64,000 nucleotides of DNA from Negativicutes bacterium (GCA_028707635.1 JAQWAQ010000001.1:51336-115335); one strand, 5' to 3'. Numbered from the stretch's first letter, positions 24,114 through 52,357 are shown. The notes: generated by a model from the letters alone, not told the origin. Made by a program: numbers and translations.

Positions 24114-24150
24114 GCTCTCACCCCTAAACTCATTGTATTTTACATTTCTA

Positions 24151-26877: not shown

Positions 26878-29276
26878 AGGCTATCCCCTTCCTTTCGCAC
26901 TAGTATCAGGAACTTCTGCAAGATTTCCTCCGCTTCTTCAAAATTAAGCTCATCAATAGCAGTACCTAACTTCACCAGAAGTAACCGGCATTTATCATCA
27001 TATTCCATTGAAAGCAACTGCGTCAGCACTTGTTTGCTTGCCGCGTGCTGATAATTGGCGATAGCTGCCTCGGCGCGTGCCAGCAAATCCTCTTTCGTCG
27101 CACCAGGCGCTGTCTGGGCCTCATCCTCGGCAGACGTTTCCTGCAAAAATCGAGCCAGCCCCTGGCGAATCGTTTCAAGCTTATAAACAAACAGCAGCAA
27201 GGCATTATCGATATATGCCATTTGCCCGGCGGCACATTTCTCTTCCAGTCGTCCAGCAAAGACGGCAAGATCGTTAGCGCCAACAGTTCCGGCAAGGCTT
27301 TTTAGCGAATGGACGATGCGAGCGAAAGACTGATAGTCCCCCTCCTTAACCAGGCTTTGCAGACGATGGGAAAGCTCTGCAGTATGAGTGAGAAAAATAC
27401 CAACAATGGTCTGATACTGGTCTAGATTGTCGCCAACAAAGAAAAGTCCGTCCGCCAAGGAAATACCATATGGCTTTAGCAACCGTGCCTGCTTATCGGC
27501 CATCCCGTCATGATGCTCGCCGCCCCCACAGGGCATAACGATGGTTACTAGTTCGGCCGGCAAACAAGTCAGCAGCACTTGTTCCAGACGTGACGGGCTA
27601 ACAGGCTTGGTGATATAATCGGTAAAACCTGCTTCCAGCAGTTTTTGCCGCGTATCGAGCGTAGCATCGGCAGTCAGAGCAATTACCGGCGCCTGACAGC
27701 CCATTTGCTGCAAACTCCCCAATGTCGTTATACCGTCCATTTGCGGCATCATATAATCCAGCAAAATAACATGATATTGATTTTGACGCGCTTTGACTAA
27801 ACACTCCTTACCGCTCAGCGCTATATCAATCGAGAGCATCGTCCGGGCCAACAAAAACTGCAACACACCCAAATTCCCCTCATTATCGTCCACTGCCAAA
27901 ATTCGTCCCTGCGGTGCGATAAAGCTCCGCTCATCCGCCGAATCATGAACATTGCTGCAGGCGGCTGTTTCGTCAGCATAACGCTGGGGAATTTCCACGG
28001 TAAAGGTGCTGCCATGTCCGTATTCACTGACGACTGACAGTCGTCCACCCATCCGCTCGGTCAATTCCTTAACAATGGCCAGGCCAAGCCCCGTGCCTTC
28101 GATTTTGCTGTTGCGAGCCTCTTCACTGCGGGCAAAGGCCTCAAAGATGTTCGGCAATAGCTCTGGCGAAATGCCTTTACCGGTGTCTATTACCTTGAGG
28201 GTAAGCAGGATGCCGCTTTTATCCGATGCTTCGCAGCCGGTGAGGCTCAGACTTACCGATCCGGCTTCGGTATATTTCACGGCATTGCTGATTAGATTAG
28301 CGCCAATTTGACGCATATGCAGACTATCACCCCAAAGCGCAGCTGGCAGTCCAGCGACTTCGACAGCAAATAGCAACCCTTTGTTTTCTGTCTGCTCCCG
28401 ACCCATCTGCACCAAGCTCTGCACCAAGTCATCGGTAAGATAGACTTCTTCCACAACCTCCAGCTTACCTGATTCGATTTTGGCAACATCCAAAATGTCA
28501 TTAATCAGCGCCAACAGCATCCGCCCCGCATCCTGGGCCCTGACAGCGTAACCGGCAATCTCCGCCGAGGCGCGCGACCTGATAATCATTTCATTCATGG
28601 CCAACATAATATTGATAGGTGTACGGATTTCATGACTCATGCTGGCGAGAAAAAGGTTTTTTGCTTGATTTGCCTGGATGGCTTCCTCACGGGCCTGCTC
28701 AAGCTGACGCTGCTGACTGTTGTACAGATGAAAACTCAAAAGCATAGTTATCCCTAAAATGACACTGACGGTCACAAAGCCAAAAACAATATCGATAATT
28801 GCTTCTTCTTCAGTCTCAAACCAAATAATCTGTGACGGCACCGAATAGGCATACAGACAAAGCAGACTGTAAAAGATGATTTCCAAAGCGGCGACAATCA
28901 GCATTTTCCGCCCTTCCAGCATAAACACAGTAAACACAATACTGAAAATAAAAAAGGATGGCATACCACTGTAATAACCGCCGCCAGCCAGGAACAGCAA
29001 GGCAAAGCCTACAAAAAAGATAACAAGAATGGTAATCAAATAGCAGCGCTGATAATTACCGCTCTTATTTGAATAGTAAAGCAACCCGCCAGAAAGGCAG
29101 GCACTGAAAAAACTAATAACTGCCATTTGTAGGCCGTTAATCAATACCAATGAAAAAACCACACTAAGCAAACTAATAATAATACCCGCCATGGCGAGCA
29201 GATTAAACAATCGCACCCGAAAAGCTAATTCGGGCCGGAAAAAGGCACTGATCACTGGGGACAGCGAAACTTTCAT
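26874..29276 (-). CDS. Hybrid sensor histidine kinase (membrane domain, HisKA, HATPase, two REC domains and an Hpt domain)
   Basis: 800 aa. The H-box is MSHEIRTPINIML and the G-boxes read DTGKGI and GTGLGL. There are two receiver-like regions. The C-terminal Hpt reads SHRLQSLVKEGDYQSFARIVHSLKSLAGTVGANDL. Confidence 0.9.
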   Translation of the reverse strand: MKVSLSPVISAFFRPELAFRVRLFNLLAMAGIIISLLSVVFSLVLINGLQMAVISFFSACLSGGLLYYSNKSGNYQRCYLITILVIFFVGFALLFLAGGGYYSGMPSFFIFSIVFTVFMLEGRKMLIVAALEIIFYSLLCLYAYSVPSQIIWFETEEEAIIDIVFGFVTVSVILGITMLLSFHLYNSQQRQLEQAREEAIQANQAKNLFLASMSHEIRTPINIMLAMNEMIIRSRASAEIAGYAVRAQDAGRMLLALINDILDVAKIESGKLEVVEEVYLTDDLVQSLVQMGREQTENKGLLFAVEVAGLPAALWGDSLHMRQIGANLISNAVKYTEAGSVSLSLTGCEASDKSGILLTLKVIDTGKGISPELLPNIFEAFARSEEARNSKIEGTGLGLAIVKELTERMGGRLSVVSEYGHGSTFTVEIPQRYADETAACSNVHDSADERSFIAPQGRILAVDDNEGNLGVLQFLLARTMLSIDIALSGKECLVKARQNQYHVILLDYMMPQMDGITTLGSLQQMGCQAPVIALTADATLDTRQKLLEAGFTDYITKPVSPSRLEQVLLTCLPAELVTIVMPCGGGEHHDGMADKQARLLKPYGISLADGLFFVGDNLDQYQTIVGIFLTHTAELSHRLQSLVKEGDYQSFARIVHSLKSLAGTVGANDLAVFAGRLEEKCAAGQMAYIDNALLLFVYKLETIRQGLARFLQETSAEDEAQTAPGATKEDLLARAEAAIANYQHAASKQVLTQLLSMEYDDKCRLLLVKLGTAIDELNFEEAEEILQKFLILVRKEGDSL

Positions 29277-36821: not shown

Positions 36822-38798
36822 TTAAAAGCTGTGCCTATAGCCTAAATTTGCTTTCCATTTTTCCGTCACTTTATCTGCTCCGGCAGTTTTAGTGATTTCA
36901 CCGTAGAGATTGTTGTTTTTGCTAAGCTTGGTGTTAAATCCGATGCCGTATTCGAACCAGGTGTCTTTCATGTCCTCGTTAGTATATTTTTCATAATTCT
37001 GGTAGCTTGTTGTTACACCTGTATCACCTGAAAATTCACGCATGAGTGAGAGTTTGGCATAAACATTCCCGTTTTTTGTATTTTTACCAGCATTTATTCC
37101 CAGTCTGCCGATAAAGGAGTTTATAGCATTATTTTTAACATATGCCCCATTTACTCCATTCATTTTCATAGTATAATCGTTGCTGTTTATGTGCCCATAA
37201 TTTATTTCTGCCTGCGGCTCAATATACCATCCGTCTTTTAAATCCTTATGATATCCATATTCTATAGACATATTAAGTCCATTGGCCGCGGTATCGCTTT
37301 CGTAGTTAGTAGTAGATGACCAGGTATTCATTTTACCGCTCATTCTTCCGTATTTGATAATGGCATCGGCAAAATGCCCTTTTTCTCCTACATAGCTTCC
37401 ATAAATGCCAAACATGGTAGAATCAGTGTCACCCTTGCCGCCGTATGAAGCTATATCTCCATCCATATGCGATAGGGCAAGGCCGGTGAATAGTTTGCCT
37501 TGCTTTATTTCTACCTTGCGGTCATAGCCCGCCTGTATTCCTCTATACTGCACCGTTGATGACAAGGAGCTGTTTATTTCTGTTTCACCGCCGTAAATTC
37601 TGGCCCAGGTACCTGTGCTGTTTTCTTCCTGGCGTAAATCACCCATCCGCCTTAATAAGTCATTGTTTTCTAACCGCCATGTGGATAGAGCTACATTTCC
37701 TAATCCTGCTGCTGTATTGGCCATTTGCTGTCCTGGTCCATCGCTAAGGCTGCCATTGCCTTCAATTTGGACTGCGGTTAGTTTTGTCACACCATTTTCG
37801 GTACTTATAGTAGGAGTAATTGTCAGGGTTTTTGTCAATAGTCCTGCGGCTACGTCTTTTTCTGTCTTATACGGTTTGGCCTGTACCGTATCATTTACAC
37901 CATTATTTGTTGTCAATACAGTAGCTCCGCCAACATATGTACCATCAATATCTTGGCTCGCATCATGTACAACCTGAATATAATAGGTGTTAGAATCGCC
38001 CGTAACGCCCTGTAGCGTCACACTGTCTGCTTGATTATTTTTTATGTCGCTGGCTATAGCAAAGGTTGCACCGTTGAGCGCACCTTCTGCATTACCAATT
38101 GTGAAGCTTCTGTCAATGGAGCTAGTTCGCACTTTATTCGGTGATTGGTGATAGAGATCGATAATTCCGCCGTTTGCCGATAGATGAATACCGTTGTTAC
38201 CTAATGTCGCAAGCGAATAGCTGTCATCGCCTTGCTGCACATACCATACAGCACCATCGCTGAGCTTCATAGATATATCTCCACGGCCTGCATCGCCTTG
38301 CAGCAACATTTTGCCTGCAAGATATGAGTTTTCATTTGTTAAATTAAGCTCTACGTAACCTGTGCCGTCGTACCCATGCTCCTTATCAGTCGTATTGTGG
38401 CCTTGAGCTATAACATTACCAGAAATCTGCACTGTTTTTGTTTTATCAGGATCTGTTTCTGAAATAGGATTTATTTTTAAAGTGGCCCTTGCACCAGATC
38501 CATCAGCAAGTCCATCCACAAATAATGCATAACTCTCACTAGCATCTTGCGTAATAGCAACATTTCCCTTTAACTGTACAGTACCCCACCGAGATGAATA
38601 AGATATATGTCCTTTAGCAATCGCAATATTATCAATTATTTCACCTGGATAATTAGACTCCGTGTAATCCTGCGATTCAGTAATCGTATCCAGCTTTGCC
38701 TCAGCAGGTGCCGGCATTAAGGATGTCGATAATACTATCCCGCCTGTGCAAAGCATATGCAGCAGGCGCTGCCGTTTTTTTTTACTTAGTTTTTTCAA
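36822..38798 (-). CDS. Classical (type Va) autotransporter: signal peptide, beta-helical passenger and C-terminal outer-membrane beta-barrel
   Basis: 658 aa. The passenger is Gly/Thr/Asn-rich with repeats. The C-terminal barrel ends ..KWKANLGYRHSF with an aromatic terminal residue. Confidence 0.75.
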   Translation of the reverse strand: MKKLSKKKRQRLLHMLCTGGIVLSTSLMPAPAEAKLDTITESQDYTESNYPGEIIDNIAIAKGHISYSSRWGTVQLKGNVAITQDASESYALFVDGLADGSGARATLKINPISETDPDKTKTVQISGNVIAQGHNTTDKEHGYDGTGYVELNLTNENSYLAGKMLLQGDAGRGDISMKLSDGAVWYVQQGDDSYSLATLGNNGIHLSANGGIIDLYHQSPNKVRTSSIDRSFTIGNAEGALNGATFAIASDIKNNQADSVTLQGVTGDSNTYYIQVVHDASQDIDGTYVGGATVLTTNNGVNDTVQAKPYKTEKDVAAGLLTKTLTITPTISTENGVTKLTAVQIEGNGSLSDGPGQQMANTAAGLGNVALSTWRLENNDLLRRMGDLRQEENSTGTWARIYGGETEINSSLSSTVQYRGIQAGYDRKVEIKQGKLFTGLALSHMDGDIASYGGKGDTDSTMFGIYGSYVGEKGHFADAIIKYGRMSGKMNTWSSTTNYESDTAANGLNMSIEYGYHKDLKDGWYIEPQAEINYGHINSNDYTMKMNGVNGAYVKNNAINSFIGRLGINAGKNTKNGNVYAKLSLMREFSGDTGVTTSYQNYEKYTNEDMKDTWFEYGIGFNTKLSKNNNLYGEITKTAGADKVTEKWKANLGYRHSF

Positions 38799-39759
38799 TG
38801 TTTTGTCCTCCTGTTACTTGATTTGTTTTTTCCAGAAAAAATTCCATTAACTGGTGCGCAGCTATGCCAAGATAATAGGCCGCCGCTTTATATTCACCGC
38901 GTCCTTGGGCATTTTGGCCAGCCAAAAAAGCAGTCTTCACATCCCAAGGCTCACTCGGCTCCATAGTAAACCATAAAGAACGCCGCACATAGCTCCAGTA
39001 GAGCTGTTCGATTTCATCGGCACAATAGCGAATCCAGGGCTTACCCTCATTGACAAAATGAATAATCGCATCTTCAGGCAGAATTTTGGCCTGAAGAGGA
39101 TTGAAGGCTTCCAGCATATGGTTAAAACAAGGTGAAATCTCGATAACCTGCCCCTCTAAAATACAGTTTAATGTATCCTGCTCCAGTAAGACAAAGTCTT
39201 TGCCGTGTTTTTTATACACCTCAAGTACCTGCTTGGTCAGCTTTTGCTGCCGCCAGATGGGAAGATTCATCAGCATCATGCCGGCATTAAAATACTCTTC
39301 ACCCTTTAAATGTAACCGCAAAGCATGTTCACATGGCTTAGGATAAAAGCTTACTGCCACAGCCTTATTGTTAAGCTCAACCTGCCAAAGCTTGTCCAAC
39401 CTGCCAATACAAAGCATATCCGCATCAAGATAAATAACTTTTGTTAGCTCTTTTGGCAGAAAGTTAGGCAGCAAAATACGCAAAAAGACAGTTTTATTCA
39501 TTCTTTCCGGACCAGCAACAATTTCCGGCACACTTTTTAATAGCTCGCGTACATCATAAATCATGATCCGCGTATTACGATACAGCCTGGTAAATTCATC
39601 AAGTTTGACTTTGTCAGCTTCATCAATTCCGCTACAAGCAAGATGAAAACAGACTGGCTGCCCGGAATGATTTAATACAATAGAGGTCATCATCACGCCA
39701 GCATATTTTACATAGTTTGCATCTACACCAAATGCAAATTGCCACTCTTCCAAATGCAA
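38782..39759 (-). CDS. Glycosyltransferase family 8 (LPS glucosyl/galactosyltransferase-like)
   Basis: FAFGVDANYVKYAGVMMTSIVLNH...YLDADMLCIGRLDKLW shows the DxD motif, and NAGMMLMNL follows. Confidence 0.8.
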   Translation of the reverse strand: MHLEEWQFAFGVDANYVKYAGVMMTSIVLNHSGQPVCFHLACSGIDEADKVKLDEFTRLYRNTRIMIYDVRELLKSVPEIVAGPERMNKTVFLRILLPNFLPKELTKVIYLDADMLCIGRLDKLWQVELNNKAVAVSFYPKPCEHALRLHLKGEEYFNAGMMLMNLPIWRQQKLTKQVLEVYKKHGKDFVLLEQDTLNCILEGQVIEISPCFNHMLEAFNPLQAKILPEDAIIHFVNEGKPWIRYCADEIEQLYWSYVRRSLWFTMEPSEPWDVKTAFLAGQNAQGRGEYKAAAYYLGIAAHQLMEFFLEKTNQVTGGQNIEKTK

Positions 39760-40006: not shown

Positions 40007-42073
40007 TCATTTGGTTATGGTGATCCAATACGTTTCCTTAGTAATACCTTCGTACTGTATTTCAATCAATTTCCTTCCGGCGCTGGTAAACGGAATCGGA
40101 CGGCCTTGCTTTAGTTCAACAAACTTCACGCCATCCGTCGAATAACGAAAAGTGAGTTTATCGGTGATATTTGTTGATTTGTCGTCAACACGATTAAGCC
40201 CGAGTGTATTATAAACCGCTTTCATCCCGGTGATGTCAAAGTTCTCGCCAATCTTGAATGTGGTCTTTGGAGGAAATGCCTCTATTCTGAAGCCTACCAG
40301 CAAACGAGGCTTAGCCAGTTCATCCTTTTTGCTCACAGGGGGCTTTACGACCGTCTGACTTGCGGAATCGCCAGTCACGGTAATAAAGTATCTCGCCACA
40401 AGCGTTAAACGGCCATTGCCAATGTCTCCTTTTATTTCAATTAACTTTATTCCGGCGGTCTGGAACGGACGGCCTTGGGTCAACTTAACGCCATCTGAGG
40501 TGTAAAAACCATAATCCAAGAGTTCCGTTATTTTCCCTCCGTCATTATCATCCTTATATACCAGCTTAAACCCGGTGCTGTCAAAGCCCTCGCCGACCCT
40601 ATAGGTGGTTTTCGTGGGGTATGACACTAGATTCCTTCCGTGCCTGAGCATGGTTGCCACGGTCGGCGTGTGGGAATTTACGCCACGCACCATATAGAAG
40701 TTGAACTCGGCATTGTGCGGATAATCGGGGGCGCTGTTTTCTCTCCATTTATTTTCACTGTACCAGGTAATGATGTGTGTACCGTCCTTACTGCTTCGGC
40801 CCGCAGCATTCAGGTACTGGTCATGAAAGTCGGGAACTTTTATCGTAGCTGTCTTCGCGAGGTCGTTCATTCGGCTAGTAATCCACCACAGAAACTCTGC
40901 GTTCCGGGTAATCAGGCGGCTGCGGTTTGACGGAAGTCCTTCGATAGCGAGATATTTGCCTCCCTCTGTTTGAATCGTAAACAGCTTCATGGGTATAGTA
41001 AATGAAGCATTTTTCGGGTCGACTGCCGGGACGGTTTTCTTGTAGGTGACTTTGAATTTCTGCATTCTTGTGTTGGAAAGCTCTCCCTTGCCGTCTGCGC
41101 CGATGACAACGTGGGGCTGATTGGGATATTTCCCGAGCGATACATCCATAACAAAAACACCTGGGTCCATCAAGGTGGCTCCTTGCCGAGTCCCGCGCAC
41201 CAGCCAATACTGCTCATCAGTCCAGCATTTGTTAGCGTCGCACAGGATTCTCGCCTGTTCCATGGTGATTTTCGCACCTGCGCTCGTGTCGCCGCCGACG
41301 GCAAACTCCTGGATGTCGGCCTCAGAGAGTGCCCCGAGGTTGCCGTCGTATAAATATTTATTGCTATAGGCTGAGAGCTTGAGGAGGGCTTCCGTAAACT
41401 CTTCATAGGTCACGCTCGCCGCCGCATTGAAATTCCCTCCGCTAGGGATGACGCCCATACTGGCAAGAAAATTTGCAGCCGCGCCGATATTCACGCCGCC
41501 AATCTTTTGGTTAAACTTTATGTCAGTGAAGTGCTCTGCTTTGTAAAAAGGCATATCGCCTTCAAATGGCGCACCGCCGTTCCGAAAGAGCAAGAAGAGC
41601 ATTTCTGCCATGTCCGCACGGGTGATGGGCTTTGTCCAGTCGTTTGCCGCATTCGGCCACACGTCCTTCGTGCCGATATAGCCATTGTAGTATGACAGCC
41701 GCTCTTTTGCCCAAGCGGAACACACGATGTCCGGCTGGCTCACCTTTGACAGTTTTGCCTGATAAACATAGCAGTCGCGGCCGCCGTATTTCACCTTTAA
41801 CCATGTCCCGTCACTGGCGGTCGCCGCCAGCACCGTCCCCCAGGGGATTTCACCCTGAACGGGACCGCCCGGGGACAGGCGATACGGTACATTCCAGTTG
41901 TTCCATATATCGGGGATGGTAACACTCGGGTGTGACTGCGGATCGCGTTGATTGACCTTGTACAGCGTCACTCCCGCTATTGGCGTCATGCTGCCAGCCG
42001 CCAGTGCCGCCGGCGGCAGCAGGGTCAGTACCAGGCACAGGGTTAGCAGGCTGCTTATCAGTCGCTTTTTCAT
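40007..42073 (-). CDS. Secreted SLH-domain surface protein with two C-terminal ~90-aa tandem repeat domains
   Basis: Signal peptide MKKRLISSLLTLCLVLTLLPPAALA. Two SLH-like segments (..ITRADMAEMLFLLF.. and HFTDIK..VTYEEFTEALLKL) precede a large domain. A duplicated C-terminal module contains TTFKIGENFDITGMKAVYN and TTYRVGEGFDSTGFKLVYK. The gene is GC-rich. Confidence 0.7.
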   Translation of the reverse strand: MKKRLISSLLTLCLVLTLLPPAALAAGSMTPIAGVTLYKVNQRDPQSHPSVTIPDIWNNWNVPYRLSPGGPVQGEIPWGTVLAATASDGTWLKVKYGGRDCYVYQAKLSKVSQPDIVCSAWAKERLSYYNGYIGTKDVWPNAANDWTKPITRADMAEMLFLLFRNGGAPFEGDMPFYKAEHFTDIKFNQKIGGVNIGAAANFLASMGVIPSGGNFNAAASVTYEEFTEALLKLSAYSNKYLYDGNLGALSEADIQEFAVGGDTSAGAKITMEQARILCDANKCWTDEQYWLVRGTRQGATLMDPGVFVMDVSLGKYPNQPHVVIGADGKGELSNTRMQKFKVTYKKTVPAVDPKNASFTIPMKLFTIQTEGGKYLAIEGLPSNRSRLITRNAEFLWWITSRMNDLAKTATIKVPDFHDQYLNAAGRSSKDGTHIITWYSENKWRENSAPDYPHNAEFNFYMVRGVNSHTPTVATMLRHGRNLVSYPTKTTYRVGEGFDSTGFKLVYKDDNDGGKITELLDYGFYTSDGVKLTQGRPFQTAGIKLIEIKGDIGNGRLTLVARYFITVTGDSASQTVVKPPVSKKDELAKPRLLVGFRIEAFPPKTTFKIGENFDITGMKAVYNTLGLNRVDDKSTNITDKLTFRYSTDGVKFVELKQGRPIPFTSAGRKLIEIQYEGITKETYWITITK

Positions 42074-42100
42074 GGCTTTGTTCCTCCCATAAGTAGATGG

Positions 42101-42204
42101 CAATACTGCAATTCATAGATACATTAATTATAGTTTAATCTTGCGACTGCTCATTCCATATGTGGAAAATTGCAGGTTTTTTGGTGAAATTGGAGAAATA
42201 CGAC
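42101..42204 (-). promoter_or_regulatory. Conserved promoter module, copy A, upstream of the SLH gene: a TATAAT -10 box plus two 9-bp direct repeats (CAATTTCAC / CAATTTTCC) with 20-bp phasing
   Basis: About 85% identical over ~100 nt to 46706..46805. In transcript orientation the repeats lie at 42184-42192 and 42164-42172. TATAAT lies at 42126-42131. Confidence 0.6.
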
Positions 42205-42498
42205 GATGGCGCACAAGCAAAATGTACGTCCCATTGCTTCTCTAAAAGCAAACCCTTGCCTCGGCATGAGATACCGGGGCAAGGGTTCGTGTTTGTTCCT
42301 GCCGGGTTTAGCGCCACTGCGTTTCTACCGGCTGCGATGTCAGCAGGACTTTCAGACAGTACCGCCGTCCCTGCGAACAAAACTCCGCTCTTTTTGCAAT
42401 TGCTTTGGAGCGGAGTTTTGTTTTGCTGATTCAATTTTACAACAGTTTGCTATGAATGTGGTAGTGTCTTATAACCCGGTTTTTAATTAGCTTTTTTA

Positions 42499-42753
42499 TT
42501 ACTTAAACTTGTTATACGCTACAGTACTGTTTGTAGAGCCCATATTTACGACTTGATCAAAATCAGAGCGGTAAGCTCCGTTAAGCTTGCCGATAATTGT
42601 GTAAGTACTATTTGGTGCTAAACCGCTAAATATCATTTGACTGCCTGTCCTACTGCTGGCAGTTATTTCAAAGCCTGCTGAATCTCGAAGGTATAACACT
42701 ACACTAGCTGCAGCTGGATCGTAGTTCGAATTTACTGTAAGGGTTACCCGCGT
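42499..42753 (-). pseudogene. Probable out-of-frame C-terminal extension of the giant adhesin (frameshift near 42.74 kb)
   Basis: The 66-aa ORF directly downstream, in another frame, encodes a beta-rich domain-like sequence (..FEITASSRTGSQMIFSGLAPNSTYTIIGKLNGAYRSD..). Its frame is open upstream into the adhesin's 3' end (..VTLTVNSNYDPAAASVV..). Confidence 0.4.
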
Positions 42754-45700
42754 TTATGGATCTAGTGGTGTTAGCTTTATTTCAACAAGGGTATATGGAT
42801 CATATGTGCCGGCTCCGGGGGCAATCGTTGCCGTTACGGTATTACTGGCATAGCCAGTCATGCTCGCTGTAAAGGTCACTTCGCCGGACGGAACAGATTC
42901 AAATCTAGCATAGCCGTACACGTTCGTGGTTTTTGAAGTTCCACCCTCCAGAGTTACCGTAGCGCCTTGGAGAGTATTGGTGCCGCTTTTGACTGTGACC
43001 TGGGCTTTACCTGGTAACCTATCCAGAACAATCACCTGCTCATTAGTGCCTTCATTGACTGTCACCCCCTGCATCATGCCTTGGTAACCATCTTTGAGTG
43101 CGGTATAGAAGTAGCTTTGTGTCGATACGTTAGTCGGCACTTTCGTTAATGTAAACTTACCATCTGCGCCTGAATACCCTAATACTTTCTTAGGATTAGA
43201 GTAACTTTCGCTAATTTCTGCTCCGCTGATCGGCTGACCCTTGCTGTCTTTAACTATCAAAGTTAAATCGCCGACCTTGTGAACGATAGTCAGATTAACG
43301 GAGTTGTTCTCCTCTGATATAGAAATAGTCTTACTGTCATCGTTATAGTTGTTACACGTTGTGGTAAAAGTATAGTCTCCGGCGGGCACACTAAAGGATA
43401 CATTCCCATAGCTGTCAGTTGTTTTAGTTTGGTCAACGCCATTACCTGTAACGCGCACGCTTGCACCCCACACATTTTTCTCAGCGTCGTCTTTGACATT
43501 AACTTGAGCAGTAATTATTTTATTGATCGTCAAAGAAATGTTGCCAGTGATACTTCTGGAGATTGTCACGCTTTGGGACTTACTTTCATAACCGGTGCAA
43601 GTTATATCAAAGGTATAGTTACCGACAGGGAGGTTTGTAAAAGAAACTTTACCGTCAGCGCCGCTATTTTTATCAATCTTACTGCCGTTTACAGTTACAG
43701 AGATTTTAGCTCCGGGAACCGGCCCTGAGCCGCTAGTCACTATAAAGTCCACGCTGCCCATTGCCGGCAAAGTTATTGTCGTGCTCGCCGGAGTATCGGC
43801 TGCAATTGTTACGACAGCAGTCTTACTGTCATAGCCTGATGTGGCGGTAAAGGTGTACTGACCGGTGGGGATGGAGGTAAATGTTGCTTCCCCTTGTGCA
43901 TTAGTTGTTTCTGTTTTTACTTGACCATTCACTGTCACGCTGACAGTTATGCCGCTAATGGGGTTATCGCCGTCCGTGACCGTAATCTTCGCGCCGCCGG
44001 TCTGGCGGGTTAAGGCGATGCTTGAGGTCGCTGTGGCTCCGTTTGCTATGACTACGTCACTTGCTGTACCGCTGACGTAATCCGCCTTAGTGGCTGTGAA
44101 GGTATATGTGCCGGTCGGGATGTTTGCAAAGATCACCTCGCCGTTAGCGGCGGTAGTCGCCGTTTGCTCCTGACCGTTTAGCGTCACTTTGACAGTGACT
44201 CCGCTAAGCGGTGCTGTGCCATCAGTAACCGTGATCTTTGCATTACCTGTCTGGCGTGCTAGGGCTATGGCTGCAGTCGCTGTTGTTCCGTTTGCTATGA
44301 CTACATCGCTTGCTGTACCGCTGCCGTAATCCGCCTTAGTGGCTGTGAAGGTATATGTCCCTGTCGGTATGTTCGCAAAGGTCGCCTCACCGTTAGCGAC
44401 GGTAGTTGCCGTTTGCTCTTGGCCGTTTACAGTCACTTTGACAGCGACTCCGCTAAGCGGTGCTGTGCCGTCAGTAACCGTGATCTTTGCTCCGCCGGTC
44501 TGGCGAGTTAAGGTCACATCGGCAGTAGCTATTGAGCCGCCGGTTATGGTTGTGCTTATTGTGTTGCTGTTATAATCTGCCTTCGTTGCTATAAAGGTGT
44601 AGGTTCCTACTGGCAGATTCGTAAATGCCGCCACACCGTAATCATCGGTAACAGCCGTCTGGGGTTGGCCGTTTACCGTCACGCTGACGGCTGCTCCGCT
44701 AAGCGGTGCATTAGAATCATCTTTAACAGTAATGTTTGCTCCGCCGCCCTGTGGTGTCAGAGCAATCGCCGCAGCTACCGTCTCTTTGTCGGCAACAGCT
44801 GTATTTACACTTTTGCCGCTGTAGTTGGCAGCGCTGGCAGCTACTGTATAGGTTGAACCGGCTGTCAGACCGCTAAAAACGGCTGTGCCGTCGCTGCCGG
44901 TGGTTTTTGTATCAATAACATTGGAACCGCTTTTCAGCTCGACTGCAGCGCCGTTTATGACTGCTTTACTGACTGCGTCGATAATCATTGCCACAATGTT
45001 GCCTCCGCTGGCTGGTAATACGACGGTAGAATTGCTTGTCGAGCCGTCTGCTACGCTTACCGCCAAGCTTTTCATCTCTTTGCCGCTATAGGCAACCGTG
45101 AATTTGTAGTTCCCCGGCGGTAAATTCGGGAATGTGGCTATACCGCTTGCATTGGTAACTGCCGTCACTTTGAAACCGGCAGCCGCATAGGCTGTCTTAA
45201 CTCCGAGAATTCGGTCAAAGAGACTCTTGTCGGCCGCACCATACAGCCCGTCTGCAGTTTCGGCGGTAACTGTCGCGCCGCCAACATCTGCCCCGGCTTC
45301 ATCCAGTACATGGATAAACGCTTTGCCGCCAAGAATGGCTAAAGCAATAGGAGGAACGGTTGTAGTTTGGTCTTTTTGTACAATCACCGCCGAGCTAGTG
45401 CTGCTAATGCTGAAATAGGAGGCGCGTACTGTATAATCTCCTGCATCCAGGCCGCTTAACACCGCTATGCCATTTGCGTCGGTTATCGCTACCGCGCCGA
45501 CCGGACTACCGTTTTGATATGCTTGCACTTGCGCGTCTTGCAGTGCTGCACCGCTGCCATTGGTTACTGTTACGCTTAAGCTGCCGGTGTAAGCGACAAA
45601 TTTAGTAAAGGTTTCGGTTTTGATATCATTTTCCCGTTGCACCTTTTGCAAGATCTTATGACTGATATCATTCGACCGCTCTTGGGGATTGCCGCCATGC

Positions 45701-46632
45701 AAGGCCGGCCCTGCCGTATCGGCCAGTTGATAAAGGACTTTGCCGTAGAGACTTCCGCTGCTCAGGTTAGAATTGGTATAGCCCATTTCCATGGATAGCC
45801 TGGGGGTAAGCTGCATTTTACTGCGCAGTCTGTAGCCGTTTTCATCTTCTTTGTGCTTGTTGTCATAGTGAAATCCTGAGGCATAAAGGCTGAACCAGGG
45901 AACATTCGCTAGCGATGTGCCCACTTCATAATCAAAACCGCTCACCGCCCGAATGTAGGAATACAATATTCCATCGGCAAGGGCGGTTCTGCCAGTTTGC
46001 CTATCGCCTGAAGTCGGGATGTAGAAGTTGGCCCGGTATTCCGCTTGCTTGTTGAAATATTCTGCGCCGACTCCAACGCGGGAAAGGTCGTGCTGGAAGG
46101 CATAGTCATAAAAAGCATTGACCCCGGTGATGCTGGTTTTATCTTCAGACAGCCATCTTAATCCCATGCCAAGATTTGCTGTGCTGTTTGCCCCGCTTTG
46201 ATAAGCGTAGCGTCCTTGCCAGAAGCCAAGCTTACCGTCTGTAACTTCCTTTGTAAAAGGTTGAAGGGTCTCAAGCGAGTATATCGGCTTGAAATCCTCG
46301 GTAAACGTAAGATTGATATCAGTCGTCCGCAGCCATTCTGGCCCTTGCTGCTTGCCATTTTGCGCGTAATAAGGGATAAGTTGATTGATAAATTGGACAA
46401 CTTTCTCCTTTGTTGATAAAGTAGCCGTGTCAGCATTCTGCTTGTTTTGGAACTGATCTTCTACCTGTTTATCTAGTGTAATTTCCGGTAGTTCGCTAGT
46501 TTGCTCGCTAGTATTTGCGCTGGCGGCTGCGTACACCGGGACTAGCGCCACCGTATTGGACATAAGCAACAGTGCCGTCAGAAAACAGGCCAACAGCTTG
46601 TTCAGTCGTTTAAAAATGTTAAACAAAGCCAA
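42754..46632 (-). CDS. Giant inverse autotransporter (intimin/invasin-type N-terminal beta-barrel) with a passenger of tandem CarboxypepD_reg-like repeats
   Basis: The N-terminal barrel motifs NAFYDYAFQHDLSRVGVGAEYFNKQAEYRANFYIPTSG match the intimin/invasin barrel pattern. Many ~88-aa Ig/CarboxypepD_reg-like repeats follow (ITVTDGTAPLSGV.VKVT.NGQEQTATT.ANGE..FANIPTGTYTFTATKADY). The start is the TTG at 46632 or 46626. Confidence 0.8.
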   Translation of the reverse strand: MALFNIFKRLNKLLACFLTALLLMSNTVALVPVYAAASANTSEQTSELPEITLDKQVEDQFQNKQNADTATLSTKEKVVQFINQLIPYYAQNGKQQGPEWLRTTDINLTFTEDFKPIYSLETLQPFTKEVTDGKLGFWQGRYAYQSGANSTANLGMGLRWLSEDKTSITGVNAFYDYAFQHDLSRVGVGAEYFNKQAEYRANFYIPTSGDRQTGRTALADGILYSYIRAVSGFDYEVGTSLANVPWFSLYASGFHYDNKHKEDENGYRLRSKMQLTPRLSMEMGYTNSNLSSGSLYGKVLYQLADTAGPALHGGNPQERSNDISHKILQKVQRENDIKTETFTKFVAYTGSLSVTVTNGSGAALQDAQVQAYQNGSPVGAVAITDANGIAVLSGLDAGDYTVRASYFSISSTSSAVIVQKDQTTTVPPIALAILGGKAFIHVLDEAGADVGGATVTAETADGLYGAADKSLFDRILGVKTAYAAAGFKVTAVTNASGIATFPNLPPGNYKFTVAYSGKEMKSLAVSVADGSTSNSTVVLPASGGNIVAMIIDAVSKAVINGAAVELKSGSNVIDTKTTGSDGTAVFSGLTAGSTYTVAASAANYSGKSVNTAVADKETVAAAIALTPQGGGANITVKDDSNAPLSGAAVSVTVNGQPQTAVTDDYGVAAFTNLPVGTYTFIATKADYNSNTISTTITGGSIATADVTLTRQTGGAKITVTDGTAPLSGVAVKVTVNGQEQTATTVANGEATFANIPTGTYTFTATKADYGSGTASDVVIANGTTATAAIALARQTGNAKITVTDGTAPLSGVTVKVTLNGQEQTATTAANGEVIFANIPTGTYTFTATKADYVSGTASDVVIANGATATSSIALTRQTGGAKITVTDGDNPISGITVSVTVNGQVKTETTNAQGEATFTSIPTGQYTFTATSGYDSKTAVVTIAADTPASTTITLPAMGSVDFIVTSGSGPVPGAKISVTVNGSKIDKNSGADGKVSFTNLPVGNYTFDITCTGYESKSQSVTISRSITGNISLTINKIITAQVNVKDDAEKNVWGASVRVTGNGVDQTKTTDSYGNVSFSVPAGDYTFTTTCNNYNDDSKTISISEENNSVNLTIVHKVGDLTLIVKDSKGQPISGAEISESYSNPKKVLGYSGADGKFTLTKVPTNVSTQSYFYTALKDGYQGMMQGVTVNEGTNEQVIVLDRLPGKAQVTVKSGTNTLQGATVTLEGGTSKTTNVYGYARFESVPSGEVTFTASMTGYASNTVTATIAPGAGTYDPYTLVEIKLTPLDP
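43975..44770. repeat. About three near-identical 264-bp tandem repeats inside the giant adhesin gene
   Basis: The repeats are visible at nucleotide level, e.g. ccgtttgctatgactac...gtaaccgtgatctttgc recurs. They encode the 88-aa domain copies. Confidence 0.85.
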
Positions 46633-46705
46633 TCCTCCTCACTTTCTTTAAATGAAACTGCATTTTTATTGATACATCACAAAACCCCTCTACAAACTTT
46701 AAGTA

Positions 46706-46805
46706 TTGCAATCCATAGTTAAATTAATTATAGCTAAATCTTGCAGCTATTAATTCCATATAAGGAAAGTTGCAGGTTTTTGGGTGAAATTGGCGAAATA
46801 AGAGA
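46706..46805 (-). promoter_or_regulatory. Conserved promoter module, copy B, upstream of the giant adhesin gene
   Basis: Repeats GTGAAATTG (46784-46792) and GGAAAGTTG (46764-46772) on the + strand, TATAAT at 46728-46733, and the same 20-bp phasing as copy A. Confidence 0.6.
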
Positions 46806-46854
46806 AAGAAAAAAGCCATGCATGACGCATGGCAACTAATTGTGATTATATATA

Positions 46855-47577
46855 CTATTGACTATTTAGAAGAGCATAGAAGGCTTCCTTCACTTTATCT
46901 CTATTTGTTCGACTAATTGGTATCACTGTTCCGTCAGTTAATACAAACTTGTCATTTTCATATTTCTCGATGTAGAGGAAATTGACCAGATAGCTTTTGT
47001 GTGACCGGATAAAAGTGTTTAACTGCTGCATTTGTTCGAATTCGTCCAGTTTAGCATAAACAGTTATTTTCTCCGCTATCTTCGCTAGGACAATATTAAC
47101 TTTATTATTTTCACTTTCTAAGTACAGGATATCTTTTGTCGGTATTTTTTGAGTTACACCACGGTAAGTGATACAAATACTTGCTTTATCTGCACTTTCG
47201 ATCTGCGCTATTGCCCTTTCCATAACCTTGGCTAACTGATCTAGCTTTATCGGTTTTACCAGATAACCCGTTGCGTTGACTTCGTATCCTTCATAAACGT
47301 AATCTGTTGAACTTGTCAGAAATATAATGTTAACTAATTTGTCCTGTTTACGGATTATCCGTGCACATGTCATTCCATTCATGTCACCCATAATAATATC
47401 CAGAAATATGATATCAAAACATACGGTTTTACTCTCGATAACTGAGTTTAATTTATAAGGGTTATCGTAAGTAAAGATAGTAGCATTGACACCCTGCTTG
47501 CATAAATATCTCTCAATTGTTTCATATAGCTTTATTCTGTCAGCAACATTATCGTCACAAATCGCTATGATTATCAT
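46855..47577 (-). CDS. LytTR-family response regulator (AgrA/ComE-like)
   Basis: The REC domain (IIIAICDDN...DIIFLDIIMGDMNGM) is followed by a C-terminal LytTR domain (..ICITYRGVTQKIPTKDILYLESENNKVNIVL...FIRSHKSYLVN). The start ATG at 47577 is preceded by GAGGTGG. Confidence 0.9.
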   Translation of the reverse strand: MIIIAICDDNVADRIKLYETIERYLCKQGVNATIFTYDNPYKLNSVIESKTVCFDIIFLDIIMGDMNGMTCARIIRKQDKLVNIIFLTSSTDYVYEGYEVNATGYLVKPIKLDQLAKVMERAIAQIESADKASICITYRGVTQKIPTKDILYLESENNKVNIVLAKIAEKITVYAKLDEFEQMQQLNTFIRSHKSYLVNFLYIEKYENDKFVLTDGTVIPISRTNRDKVKEAFYALLNSQ

Positions 47578-47756
47578 TGGTTGCCACCTCGTAACCAGAT
47601 TCACCTAAGGCGTGGGATATAAAGGCTCTGTCAAACCTTGTATCTGTAGGAAAGTTGTAAACAGCGTGAAACGCGACATAAATAATAATTCTGCAATATT
47701 ATATGTAATCCTTTTTAGTTGGCTTGATTTAATGTTGCAGCAGTAGGAGGGTTATT

Positions 47757-49049
47757 TTGCAAGAAAGTATAGTGTTTATAAGCAGAGGTATGTTTTTAAT
47801 AACAAATATTTTGCTGCTATATATATTCTTAACGCCAAAGCGGCCTTTCTGGTTTCAAATTACTGCCTTATCTGTTACCTGGATCGCTATTTACTTTTTG
47901 CGCGACATTTTGCAATCAATTATCCCTGATCCCTTTTTAGTTGGCTACCTAGTGGGCTCATTGTATATAATCCCTTGCGCACTGATTTTTAAAGAAACAA
48001 TTAATGCTAAGCTTTTTGTCTTTTTTATGATTTTTTCACTTTCCCAGTTTACTTTTCTTATTTTTTTATTTCTAGAGCAATTAGTATTTAACCATCTTGT
48101 AGGCAGTTTGATTTTGGCAGGTCTACTGCTTGAAGCTGCATCACTGCCTTTAATAAAGAAATATGTGTCACCCCATGTCAGCAATATTATTGCGATTATC
48201 GATCAGCGAAATTTCGCTTTTACCTGTTTTCCCCTTTTGTCATTTGTACTGCTGGCGTTTTATGGGGTGCAAAGAACATATTTGCTATCCAACTTCATTC
48301 CACTAGTAGTAAGTACCTTATTGATTCTTTTTACCTATTACCTGATTGCCACAGCAATCTATCAGACAATGCGTAACCAGCAAGCAGAAAAACAACTGGC
48401 CTTGCAACGCGAACATTATCGCAGCCTAAACGATAGTATTAACGCAATGAAAACAATGCGCCATGACTTGCGTCATCATCTTGTGACGTGCTTAGAGTTT
48501 TTAGTGAAAAAGAATTCGGCTGCAGCAGAAAATTATCTGGGTCAGCTTTGCAATCACTATGACGATATTGCTATCCCTAAAGTTTGTTCTAACCAATTTG
48601 CTGATGCTCTTATTTGCCATTACCTAAAGGTGGCGAAGGAGCAAGGTGTTAATATAAATACAAACTTGCATTTGCCTGACGATTTAGGTATTGATGATCA
48701 AGACCTGTGCGTTATTCTTGGCAATTGCTTGGAAAACGCTATTGAAGCCTGCAGTAAAATACCTAAAAATCAGTTGCGTTATATTGATATTAAAACCACC
48801 ATAACTAAGAATCATCTAGTAATTAAAATTGCTAATTCTTTTTGTGGTTCCGCCATCCGTCAAGGCGACAGTTTTGTATCCTCAAAAAACGGTGATAGTC
48901 ACGGAATGGGGCTTTCCAGTGTAAAAGCGCTAACTTCCAAATACCACGGTTATTGCTCTATCAATTGTGAACAACAAGTATTCAAAGTTGCTGTCTCTTT
49001 GAAACTTCCGGAAACAGTTGCCGAGTCACAATCATTAAGTATTTCTTGA
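47757..49049 (+). CDS. HPK10-type (AgrC/ComD-like) sensor histidine kinase with a 6-TM N-terminal domain
   Basis: The polytopic N-terminus is followed by H-box MRHDLRHHL. The C-terminal GHKL ATPase carries the N-box NCLENAIEA and the G-box GMGLSSV. It is divergent from the LytTR regulator. Confidence 0.85.
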   Translation: MQESIVFISRGMFLITNILLLYIFLTPKRPFWFQITALSVTWIAIYFLRDILQSIIPDPFLVGYLVGSLYIIPCALIFKETINAKLFVFFMIFSLSQFTFLIFLFLEQLVFNHLVGSLILAGLLLEAASLPLIKKYVSPHVSNIIAIIDQRNFAFTCFPLLSFVLLAFYGVQRTYLLSNFIPLVVSTLLILFTYYLIATAIYQTMRNQQAEKQLALQREHYRSLNDSINAMKTMRHDLRHHLVTCLEFLVKKNSAAAENYLGQLCNHYDDIAIPKVCSNQFADALICHYLKVAKEQGVNINTNLHLPDDLGIDDQDLCVILGNCLENAIEACSKIPKNQLRYIDIKTTITKNHLVIKIANSFCGSAIRQGDSFVSSKNGDSHGMGLSSVKALTSKYHGYCSINCEQQVFKVAVSLKLPETVAESQSLSIS

Positions 49050-49410: not shown

Positions 49411-50304
49411 ATGCGAAAAAGTTGGATTGTGGTCATATTAACAGCTTTATTGTTATTGACAATTTCTAGTACCGTTTTAGCAAATTCCACGAAAAGAATC
49501 GGTGTGCTGACCTTAAATAACGACAGCTCATACACACAATTTGGATCTATTGCCGCTGAAACAATTACTGCTGATTTAGCGAAGCTAAAATCTTGTGTTG
49601 TCGTTGAACGAAACGAGTTATCTAGCGTTTTTGCTGAACAAAGCTTTGGTGCCAAAGGATACATTGATGAAGCAACAGTTACAGAATTAGGCGGGATCCT
49701 TGGTCTGAACTACCTGCTAATGGGTTCTGTTGATTGCGATTCGGTGAAAGAACGTGGGCACTATTATTATAATAAAAAACATAAGCGAAATGAATGGATA
49801 GACGGAACCCAAAAGACAACTGTTATGCTTACTCTAAAATTAATTGATGTCAAAAACGGACACATCGTTTGGTCAGATCAATCAAGCGTTACTAATTATA
49901 ACGACGATATTAACATCACTCTTGCCGAAGCAGCGTATGATTCTGTACGAAAAATATATAAATTTATTCCCTTGCAGGGTTATATAATTAAAAACGACGC
50001 TGGCCAATATATTATTGATTTAGGCACTAATCACAATGTTACTACTGGTGATATTTTTGAAGTAAATAGCGTCAACAGCACTATTCACCATCCTGTAACT
50101 GGTGAACTTATTGTAATGAAAAAAAATGTTGGCGAACTTAAAGTAACAGAAGTTTTTGATTCCATTTGTGCTGCTAAAATCAAAGATTCAGATGACGAAA
50201 AAGCAATGGAAAATATTCAACCTGGAGATATTGTAGTAAAGAAATTAAAGAAAAAGCCACGTGGCTTCTTGGGGTTAGGCTGGTCAGGCAAACACGATTT
50301 TTAA
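49411..50304 (+). CDS. CsgG-family-like (curli secretion/LpoB-like fold) secreted protein
   Basis: Signal peptide. KRIGVLTLNNDSS...AETITADLAKLKSCVVVERNELSSVFAEQSFGAKGYIDEATVTELGGILGLNYLLMGSV matches the CsgG-family pattern. Confidence 0.65.
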   Translation: MRKSWIVVILTALLLLTISSTVLANSTKRIGVLTLNNDSSYTQFGSIAAETITADLAKLKSCVVVERNELSSVFAEQSFGAKGYIDEATVTELGGILGLNYLLMGSVDCDSVKERGHYYYNKKHKRNEWIDGTQKTTVMLTLKLIDVKNGHIVWSDQSSVTNYNDDINITLAEAAYDSVRKIYKFIPLQGYIIKNDAGQYIIDLGTNHNVTTGDIFEVNSVNSTIHHPVTGELIVMKKNVGELKVTEVFDSICAAKIKDSDDEKAMENIQPGDIVVKKLKKKPRGFLGLGWSGKHDF

Positions 50305-50311
50305 AAAAATA

Positions 50312-50341
50312 AGGACAGTTGCAAATTTGCAACTGTCCTTA
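50312..50341. terminator. Bidirectional terminator
   Basis: AAGGACAGTTGCAAATTTGCAACTGTCCTT is a perfect hairpin, followed by ATTTTTTGTT. Confidence 0.85.
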
Positions 50342-50349
50342 TTTTTTGT

Positions 50350-51444
50350 TCACTTAAGGGAAATGGTAATACAATTGTTGGATACTTCGATGACTTTAAT
50401 AGGTAATTGAGGCATAGCTTCTAGCTGTTCAGCTAACACAGTCGGAGATCCCGTGTAGTTAACATCAAGCATAGCAACTCCTTGTTGAAAATCACGTAAA
50501 AATACATTGGCAATGCCTGTTTGCTGCTTAATTGAGCGATTTAATAAATTGACAATGGAATAGTCATTGACTCCCATAACTTTAATTTGAACACCCTTTT
50601 CTGGGTTGGCTGCATAGGTTAGAAGTTTTTCGGCAAAATATTTGCCTGCAGCTTTACCGGCATTGTTTAGAGACTTTTTAGCGGCCGTTAATTCTGTTAT
50701 ATCAATACCGCCAAGCTGAAAACCTTGCGCAGCTATAATCTCGCCTGTATCCACCTTGATCATTCTGGCTTCTACTCGGGCGCGACAGGATATAATACTG
50801 CCTCCCATATCCCGACCGGCATACTCGGCAAAACCTTCTCCTACGATTAAGTAATCCATCCTGTCTTTTAGCATCATCAGAAGAGCTGTTTGACTATCTC
50901 CTTGAATTATTGCCTTTACAGTGTCCGACTGACGGATTTGAGCTAAGCTATCGGGATCTACAATCCTACGAAATCCGGCTTCGGCTAATTGATCGATAAC
51001 TGCTGTTTCGGCAGCTGAATCAGAGATAGGCCGTATGTAGTATTCTTTAATTACGACACCAATTCGCGGATCACGCAACCCCATATCAATTAGTTTTAAA
51101 CGTTGAAGTTTTGTCATTAAGGTTGAGTTGGGCTGTGAGTCAACTGTTACATGGGCCTGCAATGTAAATACACCGTTCGCTTCTTTCTCACTTATAATAG
51201 TATAGTCACGGATATATCCCTGTGATTTTGCATATATCTCATCTTTTAACACCATATTGTTTTGCACCAGCGTTTGAGAGTCAATTAAAGTTCCCACCGC
51301 TTGCTCAACGGCCTGGCGCATGGCGTCATGCAGCGCCGCCTCACGCGTTGGCCCTTGCCCGTCTACAAGGACTGTCTGTGCTGATACCAACAGGCATTGT
51401 GAAATTACAATTAATGTGATAACCATGATTTTTAATGCTTGCAA
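50350..51444 (-). CDS. Secreted multi-domain protein with LPP20-like and CsgG-like modules
   Basis: Signal peptide. The N-terminal LPP20-like region reads REAALHDAMRQAVEQAVGTLIDSQTLV. The central CsgG-like segment reads PRIGVVIKEYY...YLIVGEGFAEYAG. Confidence 0.55.
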   Translation of the reverse strand: MQALKIMVITLIVISQCLLVSAQTVLVDGQGPTREAALHDAMRQAVEQAVGTLIDSQTLVQNNMVLKDEIYAKSQGYIRDYTIISEKEANGVFTLQAHVTVDSQPNSTLMTKLQRLKLIDMGLRDPRIGVVIKEYYIRPISDSAAETAVIDQLAEAGFRRIVDPDSLAQIRQSDTVKAIIQGDSQTALLMMLKDRMDYLIVGEGFAEYAGRDMGGSIISCRARVEARMIKVDTGEIIAAQGFQLGGIDITELTAAKKSLNNAGKAAGKYFAEKLLTYAANPEKGVQIKVMGVNDYSIVNLLNRSIKQQTGIANVFLRDFQQGVAMLDVNYTGSPTVLAEQLEAMPQLPIKVIEVSNNCITISLK

Positions 51445-51508
51445 ATTAAACCACCCTTATCCTGAAACTTTACACATGCAATCAATACTGTTTGGCTGCT
51501 GTCGAAGC

Positions 51509-52357
51509 TTATTGAAGGAAAACTACAGGACAGTTCCGAAAAAAGCCAGATTCCGCATTTGCTGATAAAATTATGTCCGCATCTTCTCTGGCAATCACAG
51601 GATTCCGATTAAAATCATTAAGTCTTAACGCTTTTACATAAATTGGCTGATCCCCAGCCCGCGAAACATCGCCGGGATTATCAGGACCGGCATAGCCAAC
51701 CGCGCCATAGTTAATAATGAAACTCGAGTCAATAAATTGAGCTCCATAAATAATACGACCCAAATCATCTATAATTATCGGAGACATTACCCGATCAAGA
51801 TCTAGACCGCGACAATCTACAATCACTCCGGTAACTGAATTTAACGGTACCATTCTGTTTTGCATCTGAACAGTTTCAACGGACTCGACTGGCGCCGGAG
51901 CATCTATAACGGCTGGCTTATGAGCCCAAATACTAGCGGCCAAACTATCTTGGGCACCAAATATATTGACGCTCAATGTTACTAGGTATGTACCATTAGG
52001 CATTTGTTCTTCTTTTAAAATCTTAGCATTTTTGATTAGCCCTGATACTGCTATTTTTGTATTGTCTTCTACTACCATTAACTGCTCAACAGTTGTATTA
52101 CTGTCAACCTGCACTCCATAAATTTGCTCGGCAAGTCCCCGGTAAGCATCTACTATGGCTGCTCTGCGCGCGAGTACAGCTCCCAAAGCATCACTTGCAA
52201 TGTTTTGTGGTCGAATGCCTGTACCTGTTGCCGCAACTATACCTTCCTGCCATTTCACACCATTGCTGATTTCGGTAAGGCTGTTTGGTGCAGCAAAAGA
52301 TACACTTGTCATTAGCATCATCACGACTGCAAAACTGAATATAAATAGCTTTTTCAT
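51509..52357 (-). CDS. LPP20-family-like secreted lipoprotein with an extra C-terminal domain
   Basis: Signal peptide. The LPP20-like region reads GIVAATGTGIRPQNIASDALGAVLARRAAIVDAYRGLAEQIYGVQV. Confidence 0.55.
   Translation of the reverse strand: MKKLFIFSFAVVMMLMTSVSFAAPNSLTEISNGVKWQEGIVAATGTGIRPQNIASDALGAVLARRAAIVDAYRGLAEQIYGVQVDSNTTVEQLMVVEDNTKIAVSGLIKNAKILKEEQMPNGTYLVTLSVNIFGAQDSLAASIWAHKPAVIDAPAPVESVETVQMQNRMVPLNSVTGVIVDCRGLDLDRVMSPIIIDDLGRIIYGAQFIDSSFIINYGAVGYAGPDNPGDVSRAGDQPIYVKALRLNDFNRNPVIAREDADIILSANAESGFFRNCPVVFLQ

Follow-up and report, generated by a model that had tools for sequence, protein, structure and literature searches.

The two-component system and its neighbouring genes

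In a 64,000-nucleotide stretch of a Negativicutes bacterium genome (GCA_028707635.1, JAQWAQ010000001.1:51336-115335; hereafter the window), a divergent pair of genes for an AgrC/AgrA-like two-component system lies beside two genes for large exported proteins, each of which is preceded by a copy of the same ~100-bp block. This block is very likely a promoter, and it is probably the output promoter of the adjacent two-component system.

The response regulator gene (46855..47577, minus strand, ATG at 47577) encodes a 240-aa protein of the LytTR family. Pfam detected a Response_reg domain at residues 5-118 (1.2e-16) and a LytTR domain at residues 144-233 (4e-19), the receiver (REC) plus LytTR architecture expected of such regulators. 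The receiver aspartate lies in an FLDIIMGD motif. A full-length sequence match was found in the PDB with ComE (4cbv; residues 6-231 versus 5-242), and the exact protein record is named ‘LytTR family DNA-binding domain-containing protein [Negativicutes bacterium]’. Divergent from it is a gene for an AgrC-like (HPK10-type) membrane histidine kinase (47757..49049, plus strand; Pfam HATPase_c_5, 2.2e-22), whose PDB sequence matches were all to Staphylococcus aureus AgrC (6e52/4bxi). Residues 1-205 of the kinase contain ~6-7 hydrophobic segments, and no 5TMR-LYT/LytS sensor domain was found by Pfam. Both the domain assignments and the AgrC-only matches agree with the identification of this pair in the previous sequence-only reading. 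An intrinsic terminator, formed by a hairpin and a T-tract (46815..46833, minus strand), closes the regulator transcript directly upstream of the first copy of the block. The same hairpin, GCCATGCGTCATGCATGGC, occurs 3' of the regulator gene in four of the related loci described below, which are given L numbers (L001, L004, L043 and L051), and also precedes the second copy of the module in L043.

No AgrB match was detected by Pfam in 30 open reading frames of the window, nor in the precomputed Pfam annotations of neighbouring genes in 13 loci, in keeping with the earlier statement that agrBD is not found nearby. Because no agrB or agrD gene is present among these frames and locus neighbours, the description of the system as a peptide-quorum-sensing type, which was based on the resemblance of the kinase to its family, is unsupported, although a small AgrD-like frame may lie elsewhere in the genome. 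The same reading had called attention to a motif pair with 17-bp phasing, CGTTTCAC-N8-CAACTTTCC, in the kinase-regulator intergenic region (47649..47674, minus strand). The pair exists with that phasing, but it is kept only in the >85% relatives L001 and L049; half of it is deleted in L004, and it is absent from the corresponding intergenic regions of L051, L053, L055, L056 and L057. It is probably not a conserved operator, and autoregulation through this site was rejected because the pair is not conserved. In close relatives, the sequence (A/G)TTGCAG is also found after a TATAAT in the kinase-regulator intergenic region. On its other side the kinase gene adjoins a cluster of lipoprotein-like genes (49411-52357) related to CsgG/LpoB, FlgT_N/LipL46 and LPP20, which is not kept beside the kinase in the other loci.

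Downstream of the regulator gene, on the same strand, is a gene for a 1292-aa inverse autotransporter adhesin (42754..46632, minus strand), with a TTG start codon after GGAGGA. The product contains an IAT_beta domain (residues 64-333, 4e-28), Big_1, and CarboxypepD_reg (1e-101 over 11 stretches); that is, a beta-barrel followed by repeated Ig-like passenger domains, as in type Ve secretion. The original identification of this gene is thus upheld by the IAT_beta match. Within its CarboxypepD_reg region there are three tandem 249-nt repeats, 61-100% identical to each other (43841-44709).

The second gene (40007..42073, minus strand) encodes a 688-aa secreted protein with a signal peptide. No Pfam match was obtained for it at E<=0.001, and no SLH match at E<=0.1; weak signals were seen for Big_3 (E=0.004), RicinB_lectin_2 (E=0.028) and a ricin B-like lectin in the PDB (E=0.018). 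Its earlier designation as an SLH surface protein is weak: it agrees with a UniRef name (‘SLH domain-containing protein’), and the orthologue in L051 (86% protein identity) gives a Pfam SLH signal at E=0.037, but significant Pfam matches and PDB support were lacking. The GC content of both genes (46-52%) exceeds that of the flanking DNA (37-42%). The succession of regulator, inverse autotransporter and 688-aa orthologue is nevertheless syntenic in several genomes, so that a recent horizontal acquisition of the gene pair is not indicated and the proposal that these genes were horizontally acquired is doubtful.

Next to the 688-aa gene, on its downstream side, a gene for a family-8 glycosyltransferase overlaps one for a classical autotransporter (Autotransporter beta-domain; 36822-39759, minus strand). 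This pair recalls the TibC-like glycosyltransferase and AIDA-type autotransporter genes that follow a paralogous regulator in L058. The search for promoter blocks gave no match upstream of the pair. A 243-aa protein, which in relatives is encoded after the module or after the 688-aa orthologue, was also considered; no homologue was found at 61693-62424, where the gene encodes a CoA transferase.

The repeated block in the window

A repeat search of the 64-kb window identified positions 42104-42203 and 46704-46803 as a 100-nt, two-copy direct repeat with 83% identity, slightly below the ~85% given earlier, and this pair is the sole long non-coding repeat of the window. In pairwise alignment the identity drops away on both sides, similarity being confined to the block. 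A 29-nt core, CAATTTCACCNAAAAACCTGCAAYTTTCC, has exactly two occurrences when up to 3 mismatches are tolerated, both of them on the minus strand, while shuffled sequences (n = 100) give an expectation of 0.00. Both copies read along the minus strand, and each lies upstream of a minus-strand gene, the two genes being unrelated to each other.

Copy 1 (46702..46803), upstream of the inverse autotransporter gene, is composed, in transcript orientation, of TATTTCG (46794-46800), a left repeat CAATTTCAC (46784-46792), an 11-nt spacer CCAAAAACCTG (46773-46783), a right repeat CAACTTTCC (46764-46772) and a TATAAT -10 hexamer (46727-46732). Transcription is predicted to start near 46720, which would give a 5' untranslated region (5'UTR) of ~88 nt. 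Copy 2 (42100..42203), upstream of the 688-aa gene, has the same arrangement, with TATTTCT (42194-42200), the left repeat CAATTTCAC (42184-42192), the spacer CAAAAAACCTG (42173-42183), the right repeat CAATTTTCC (42164-42172) and TATAAT (42127-42132); the predicted start is near 42120 and the corresponding 5'UTR is ~47 nt. Upstream of copy 2 there is also a hairpin with a T-run (inverted repeat at 42244..42294, minus strand), different from the one that follows the regulator gene.

In both copies 31 nt separate the right repeat from the TATAAT, in accordance with the ~30 nt first reported. The hexamers at the -35 position, GAATTA and AATGAG (17-18 nt spacing), are unlike TTGACA, so the -10 is accompanied by a poor -35, as had been noticed. 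Two further symmetries overlap these elements. The arms of an 8-nt inverted repeat, CTGCAATT/AATTGCAG, lie on either side of the core promoter in copy 2 (42106-42113 and 42168-42175), and a TTCC-N6-GGAA palindrome is found at 42153-42166 and 46753-46766. A sigma-54 reading of TGGAAT-N-TGCA, noticed by eye, was discarded: its GG and GC elements are out of register by one base, and the sequence is not kept in distant instances.

The block in related genomes

Many close homologues of the regulator were found in metagenome-assembled genomes (MAGs) of Negativicutes, and the loci around 12 of them, ranging from 92% to 36% identity, were fetched. Instances of the block were collected with an nhmmer profile and MAFFT, yielding ~19 non-redundant instances, 15 of which were aligned for geometry. 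Read along the transcript, their consensus is TATTTCG-N-CAATTTCAC-(C/G)AAAAACCTG-CA(T/A)TTTTCC-31 nt-TATAAT(TAAT).

The geometry is fixed. The spacer is 11 nt long in 15/15 aligned instances, and the right 9-mer and the -10 are separated by 31 nt in 14 of them and by 32 nt in the remaining one. TATAA is invariant, and the sequence of the ~31 nt that lead from the right 9-mer to the -10 varies freely among the distant instances. Across the aligned instances the hexamer at the -35 position is never TTGACA-like, and no complete promoter was called at the block by a promoter scan. Self-similarity of the upstream 42 nt in the 15 instances peaks at offsets of 9 (mean best 9-mer match 6.5) and 21 (6.4), above a background of 2-5, with offset 20 at 5.7; in L055 the repeat at 21 bp is perfect (9/9). 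Because of these two peaks the site is better described as a set of three related 9-mers, of which two abut and the third lies 21 bp downstream. The paired 9-bp repeats of the sequence-only reading stand as regards the 11-nt spacer, which fits the LytTR geometry, but the phasing is better read as 21 than as 20 bp and a third 9-mer abuts the pair.

Thirteen loci have the kinase and regulator genes in divergent orientation (the window, L001, L004, L043, L049, L051, L053, L055, L056, L057, L058, L059 and L060). In all 13 the block directly follows the terminator of the regulator gene, with regulator identities of 52-100%. The outgroup L061, whose regulator is 36% identical, has co-directional regulator and kinase genes and no block.

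The gene after the block varies. It encodes an inverse autotransporter in six loci (the window and its orthologues in L043, L049, L051, L053 and L057), and a 243-aa exported, lipoprotein-like protein in L004. In L058 the block is followed by genes for a TibC-like glycosyltransferase and an AIDA-type autotransporter, in L060 by two secretin genes and a CarboxypepD_reg protein, in L055 by an MCP-CheA-REC-GGDEF cluster, and in L056, from the cultured Pelosinus sp. sgz500959, by a gene for an 82-aa protein. The block of L059, a locus from a Veillonellales MAG, is followed by a gene (10999-20723+) that is annotated with a 7001-residue product and continues beyond the fetched locus end. In L001 the block is truncated before the -10 and no gene follows it. 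Since the downstream genes differ between loci, the block travels with the regulator gene and is not tied to any one cargo gene. Simple synteny between the block and its cargo thus fails as an explanation, because the block stays with the regulator when the cargo is replaced or lost.

Additional copies were found before TpsA/TpsB genes in L001, before an inverse autotransporter gene on the kinase side in L004, before the 688-aa orthologue in L051, before a gene in L043 whose product has a long signal region like that of autotransporters, and before a gene for a 500-aa protein in L036. Each of them precedes a gene for an exported protein and has the same orientation as that gene. At the 688-aa gene the block is present in the window and in L051, and absent from the orthologous site in L049 and L057.

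In L043 (6594-7444) a gene for a 234-aa receiver-only protein, 28% identical to the receiver of the regulator, is followed by a regulator-type terminator hairpin and a block, and one copy of the block is here duplicated together with that terminator. In L036 (contig VSSQ01000046.1, from the same bioreactor metagenome project as the window), the copy at 760-1130 lies beside a sequence that by eye resembles a tRNA 3' end, although no tRNA gene was called there by ARAGORN. The 500-aa protein of L036 shares only the 5'UTR and signal peptide (22/28 identical) with the 688-aa protein of the window, the mature protein being unrelated. This fusion suggests that promoter and signal-peptide cassettes have been recombined onto different cargo genes.

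Two paralogous kinase-regulator-block-adhesin units coexist in L049/L058, which are on one 48-kb contig, and in GCA_002925955 (L043 and L057); they are adjacent once. The half-sites of the paralogous unit differ slightly, CAATTTTCC-N11-CAAAATTTC.

A pattern scan of metagenome contigs (241 million records) returned 28 loci, of which only L027, L035, L036 and L043 are true blocks; the others are coincidences within coding sequences of abundant, unrelated organisms. A pattern with one extra N, which cannot match the true block, gave 14 matches in genome contigs of unrelated taxa and indicates only the level of chance matches.

Interpretation of the block

Based on its constant position after the regulator gene and its fixed geometry, we regard the block as probably an activator-dependent, sigma-70-type promoter cassette that serves as the output of the adjacent AgrC/AgrA-like system, with the neighbouring regulator as its likely direct activator. 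On receiving a signal, the membrane kinase would phosphorylate the LytTR response regulator. The regulator would then bind the head-to-tail 9-mers TATTTCGCC / AATTTCACC and the (A/T)TTTTCC element 21 bp downstream, at positions ~-45 to -85, with the A-tract of the spacer probably aiding DNA bending. Bound ~8 nt upstream of the missing -35, it could recruit RNA polymerase to the perfect TATAAT -10, so that transcription would start near the positions predicted above. The targets in the window would be the inverse autotransporter adhesin and the 688-aa secreted, lectin-like protein, and in relatives the same cassette would act before other outer-membrane and secreted proteins. Given that the cassette precedes varied surface-protein genes in relatives, the system would therefore control a fast-evolving surface-protein regulon. 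This retains the core of the earlier proposal, that the LytTR system co-regulates both surface-protein genes, as far as linkage and geometry are concerned, and leaves out the peptide signal, the autoregulation and the horizontal origin of the targets.

Known LytTR sites consist of 9-11-nt repeats with 11-13-nt spacers and have no common consensus (PMC4847170). The block agrees with this type of target promoter in repeat length, in spacer length and in having its repeats just upstream of a poor -35 position; it departs from it in that the spacer is conserved. The AgrC/AgrA system of S. aureus, with its P2/P3 promoters, is alike in its polytopic AgrC-like kinase module and REC plus LytTR regulator, and in the imperfect direct repeats, which lie ~two helical turns apart and directly precede a -35 that is weak or absent; AgrA boxes, likewise upstream of the -35, are separated by 12-13 bp (PMC5600425). 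Unlike that system, the one described here has no detected agrB or agrD, is encoded by divergent genes rather than one operon, and has no conserved autoregulatory site or autoregulated promoter; its repeats do not fit the AgrA box, its spacer is 11 nt long and conserved, its host is a diderm Firmicute and its targets are type V secretion adhesins.

The YpdA/YpdB-yhjX and BtsS/BtsR-btsT systems of E. coli resemble it in that a dedicated LytTR regulator acts on a single target promoter or on a small number of them. The half-site of YpdB, GGCATTTCAT, is directly repeated across an 11-nt spacer (PMC4847170), and the CAATTTCAC-N11 of the block resembles it both in geometry and in the CA(A)TTTCA core. 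The differences are that here the kinase is AgrC-like and has no LytS sensor domain, that a third 9-mer abuts the pair, and that the targets are adhesins instead of transporters. The regulator also aligns over its full length with the crystal-structure sequence of ComE, from the ComD/ComE system of Streptococcus pneumoniae; ComE recognizes direct-repeat target sites. The gene order is divergent here, the regulon content is different, and peptide or ABC exporter genes are not present. Further parallels for the target promoter are offered by the FsrABDC-gelE/sprE locus of Enterococcus faecalis, where paired LytTR boxes with fixed spacing lie directly downstream of the two-component locus, and by VirS/VirR of Clostridium perfringens, in which a small group of secreted proteins makes up the regulon marked by VirR boxes. 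In both of these systems the drivers are Agr-type cyclic peptides that AgrB/AgrD homologues produce; in the loci studied here no genes of this type were seen, and the box sequences are unrelated.

Several observations weigh against the regulator as the reader of the block. The two repeats of one copy are only 3-8/9 identical, falling to 3-4/9 in the subtype B copies (those before TpsA in L001 and the inverse autotransporter in L004), and the A-tract/CTGC spacer equals the repeats in conservation among loci whose regulators are 52-100% identical. In the LytTR family the spacer between half-sites is usually non-conserved, so the conserved spacer is unusual and a different or additional factor could be the reader. 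The AgrA-box consensus, [TA][AC][CA]GTTN[AG][TG], was not matched in the repeat blocks by regular expression on both strands of the 15 instances. Most loci were moreover retrieved through the regulator, and copies distant from a regulator gene are under-sampled. The conserved spacer and the weak repeat similarity of subtype B lend some weight to the alternative that the promoter cassette is read by another transcription factor, alone or together with the LytTR regulator, whose adjacency would then reflect gene order only. Candidate targets for such a factor are the A-tract/CTGC spacer (AAAAACCTGC), the TTCC-N6-GGAA palindrome, which shares bases with the right repeat in roughly half of the instances, and, around the -10 of copy 2, the CTGCAA...TTGCAG inverted repeat. 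But the palindrome and the inverted repeat vanish in the distant instances (L053, L055, L056, L059 and L060), where the TTTC-type 9-mers, their spacing and the -10 persist, and the block stays with the regulator gene when the gene downstream is replaced or lost. We therefore consider another reader unlikely.

The scattered copies could also be explained by a small mobile or recombinogenic repeat, similar to a cassette or to a miniature inverted-repeat transposable element (MITE), that carries an outward promoter and has no regulatory tie to the two-component system. The presence/absence polymorphism at the 688-aa sites, the duplication with a terminator in L043 and the L036 fusion beside a tRNA-like 3' end are in line with such an element, and the block does resemble a cassette that can be copied. 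A mobile element should, however, share terminal inverted repeats among its copies, and these were not found; the position after the regulator is fixed in every one of the divergent loci, and true matches are very rare in public metagenome records. Furthermore, among the instances found, every intact copy is intergenic, upstream of a co-oriented gene, with none inside a gene or reversed, so the block does not behave as the duplicated mobile fragment at non-promoter locations that was named at the outset as a refuting result. An element of this kind is accordingly quite improbable. Less probable still, to the point of being very unlikely, is a block that acts as a cis-regulatory leader RNA or a small RNA instead of as protein-binding DNA. 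In close relatives conservation does run ~25 nt past the -10 into the presumed transcript (GGATTGCA(A/G)TA), but RNAalifold predicted 0 base pairs for the 15 instances, the alignment of inverse autotransporter 5'UTRs contained no compensatory changes by the same method, and Rfam gave no match to the block at the gathering threshold, nor any at E<=1 in 41900-47900. The conserved part also lies mostly upstream of the -10, after a terminator.

Taking the output-promoter reading together with the spread of the block, a broader scheme can be put forward, although we hold it more tentatively and would not place it above even chances. The kinase-regulator pairs may form an undescribed AgrCA-like family, widespread in Negativicutes, always divergent and without peptide-signal genes, in which the output promoter is a portable cassette located immediately 3' of the regulator gene. 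The cassette, sometimes with a 5'UTR and signal peptide, may have been repeatedly copied or swapped before genes for type V secretion adhesins, secretins and giant surface proteins, and the regulator may read a tripartite site, made of three 9-mers and the conserved A-tract spacer, and not the classical two boxes.

Other features were recorded elsewhere in the window. A c-di-GMP-I riboswitch (13491-13575, minus strand, 77.5 bits) precedes a dCache_1-HAMP-MCPsignal chemoreceptor gene (11372-13402, minus strand). An IS200-like Y1 transposase gene is located at 23343-24194 (minus strand; Pfam Y1_Tnp, 9e-17), and genes for a hybrid histidine kinase (HisKA-HATPase_c-REC-Hpt) and then a REC-GerE (LuxR-type) regulator at 26242-29276 (minus strand) constitute a second, unrelated signalling pair.

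A full-text literature search found no paper tying a LytTR system to autotransporter-type adhesins in Negativicutes, and adhesin regulation in diderm Firmicutes appears to be little studied. As the proposed mechanism follows the known LytTR pattern, it extends current knowledge and does not overturn it; what is distinctive is the divergent kinase and regulator, the tripartite site with a conserved spacer, and the cassette-like spread before type V secretion adhesins and other surface proteins. The analysis yields a concrete, testable prediction, namely a ~75-bp operator/promoter read by a named regulator family, with the same arrangement in a cultured relative, Pelosinus sp. sgz500959. It also illustrates how a regulon may grow by the copying of a promoter cassette before new cargo genes. 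If the broader scheme is true, one sensor would command a rapidly reshuffled repertoire of surface proteins in diderm Firmicutes.

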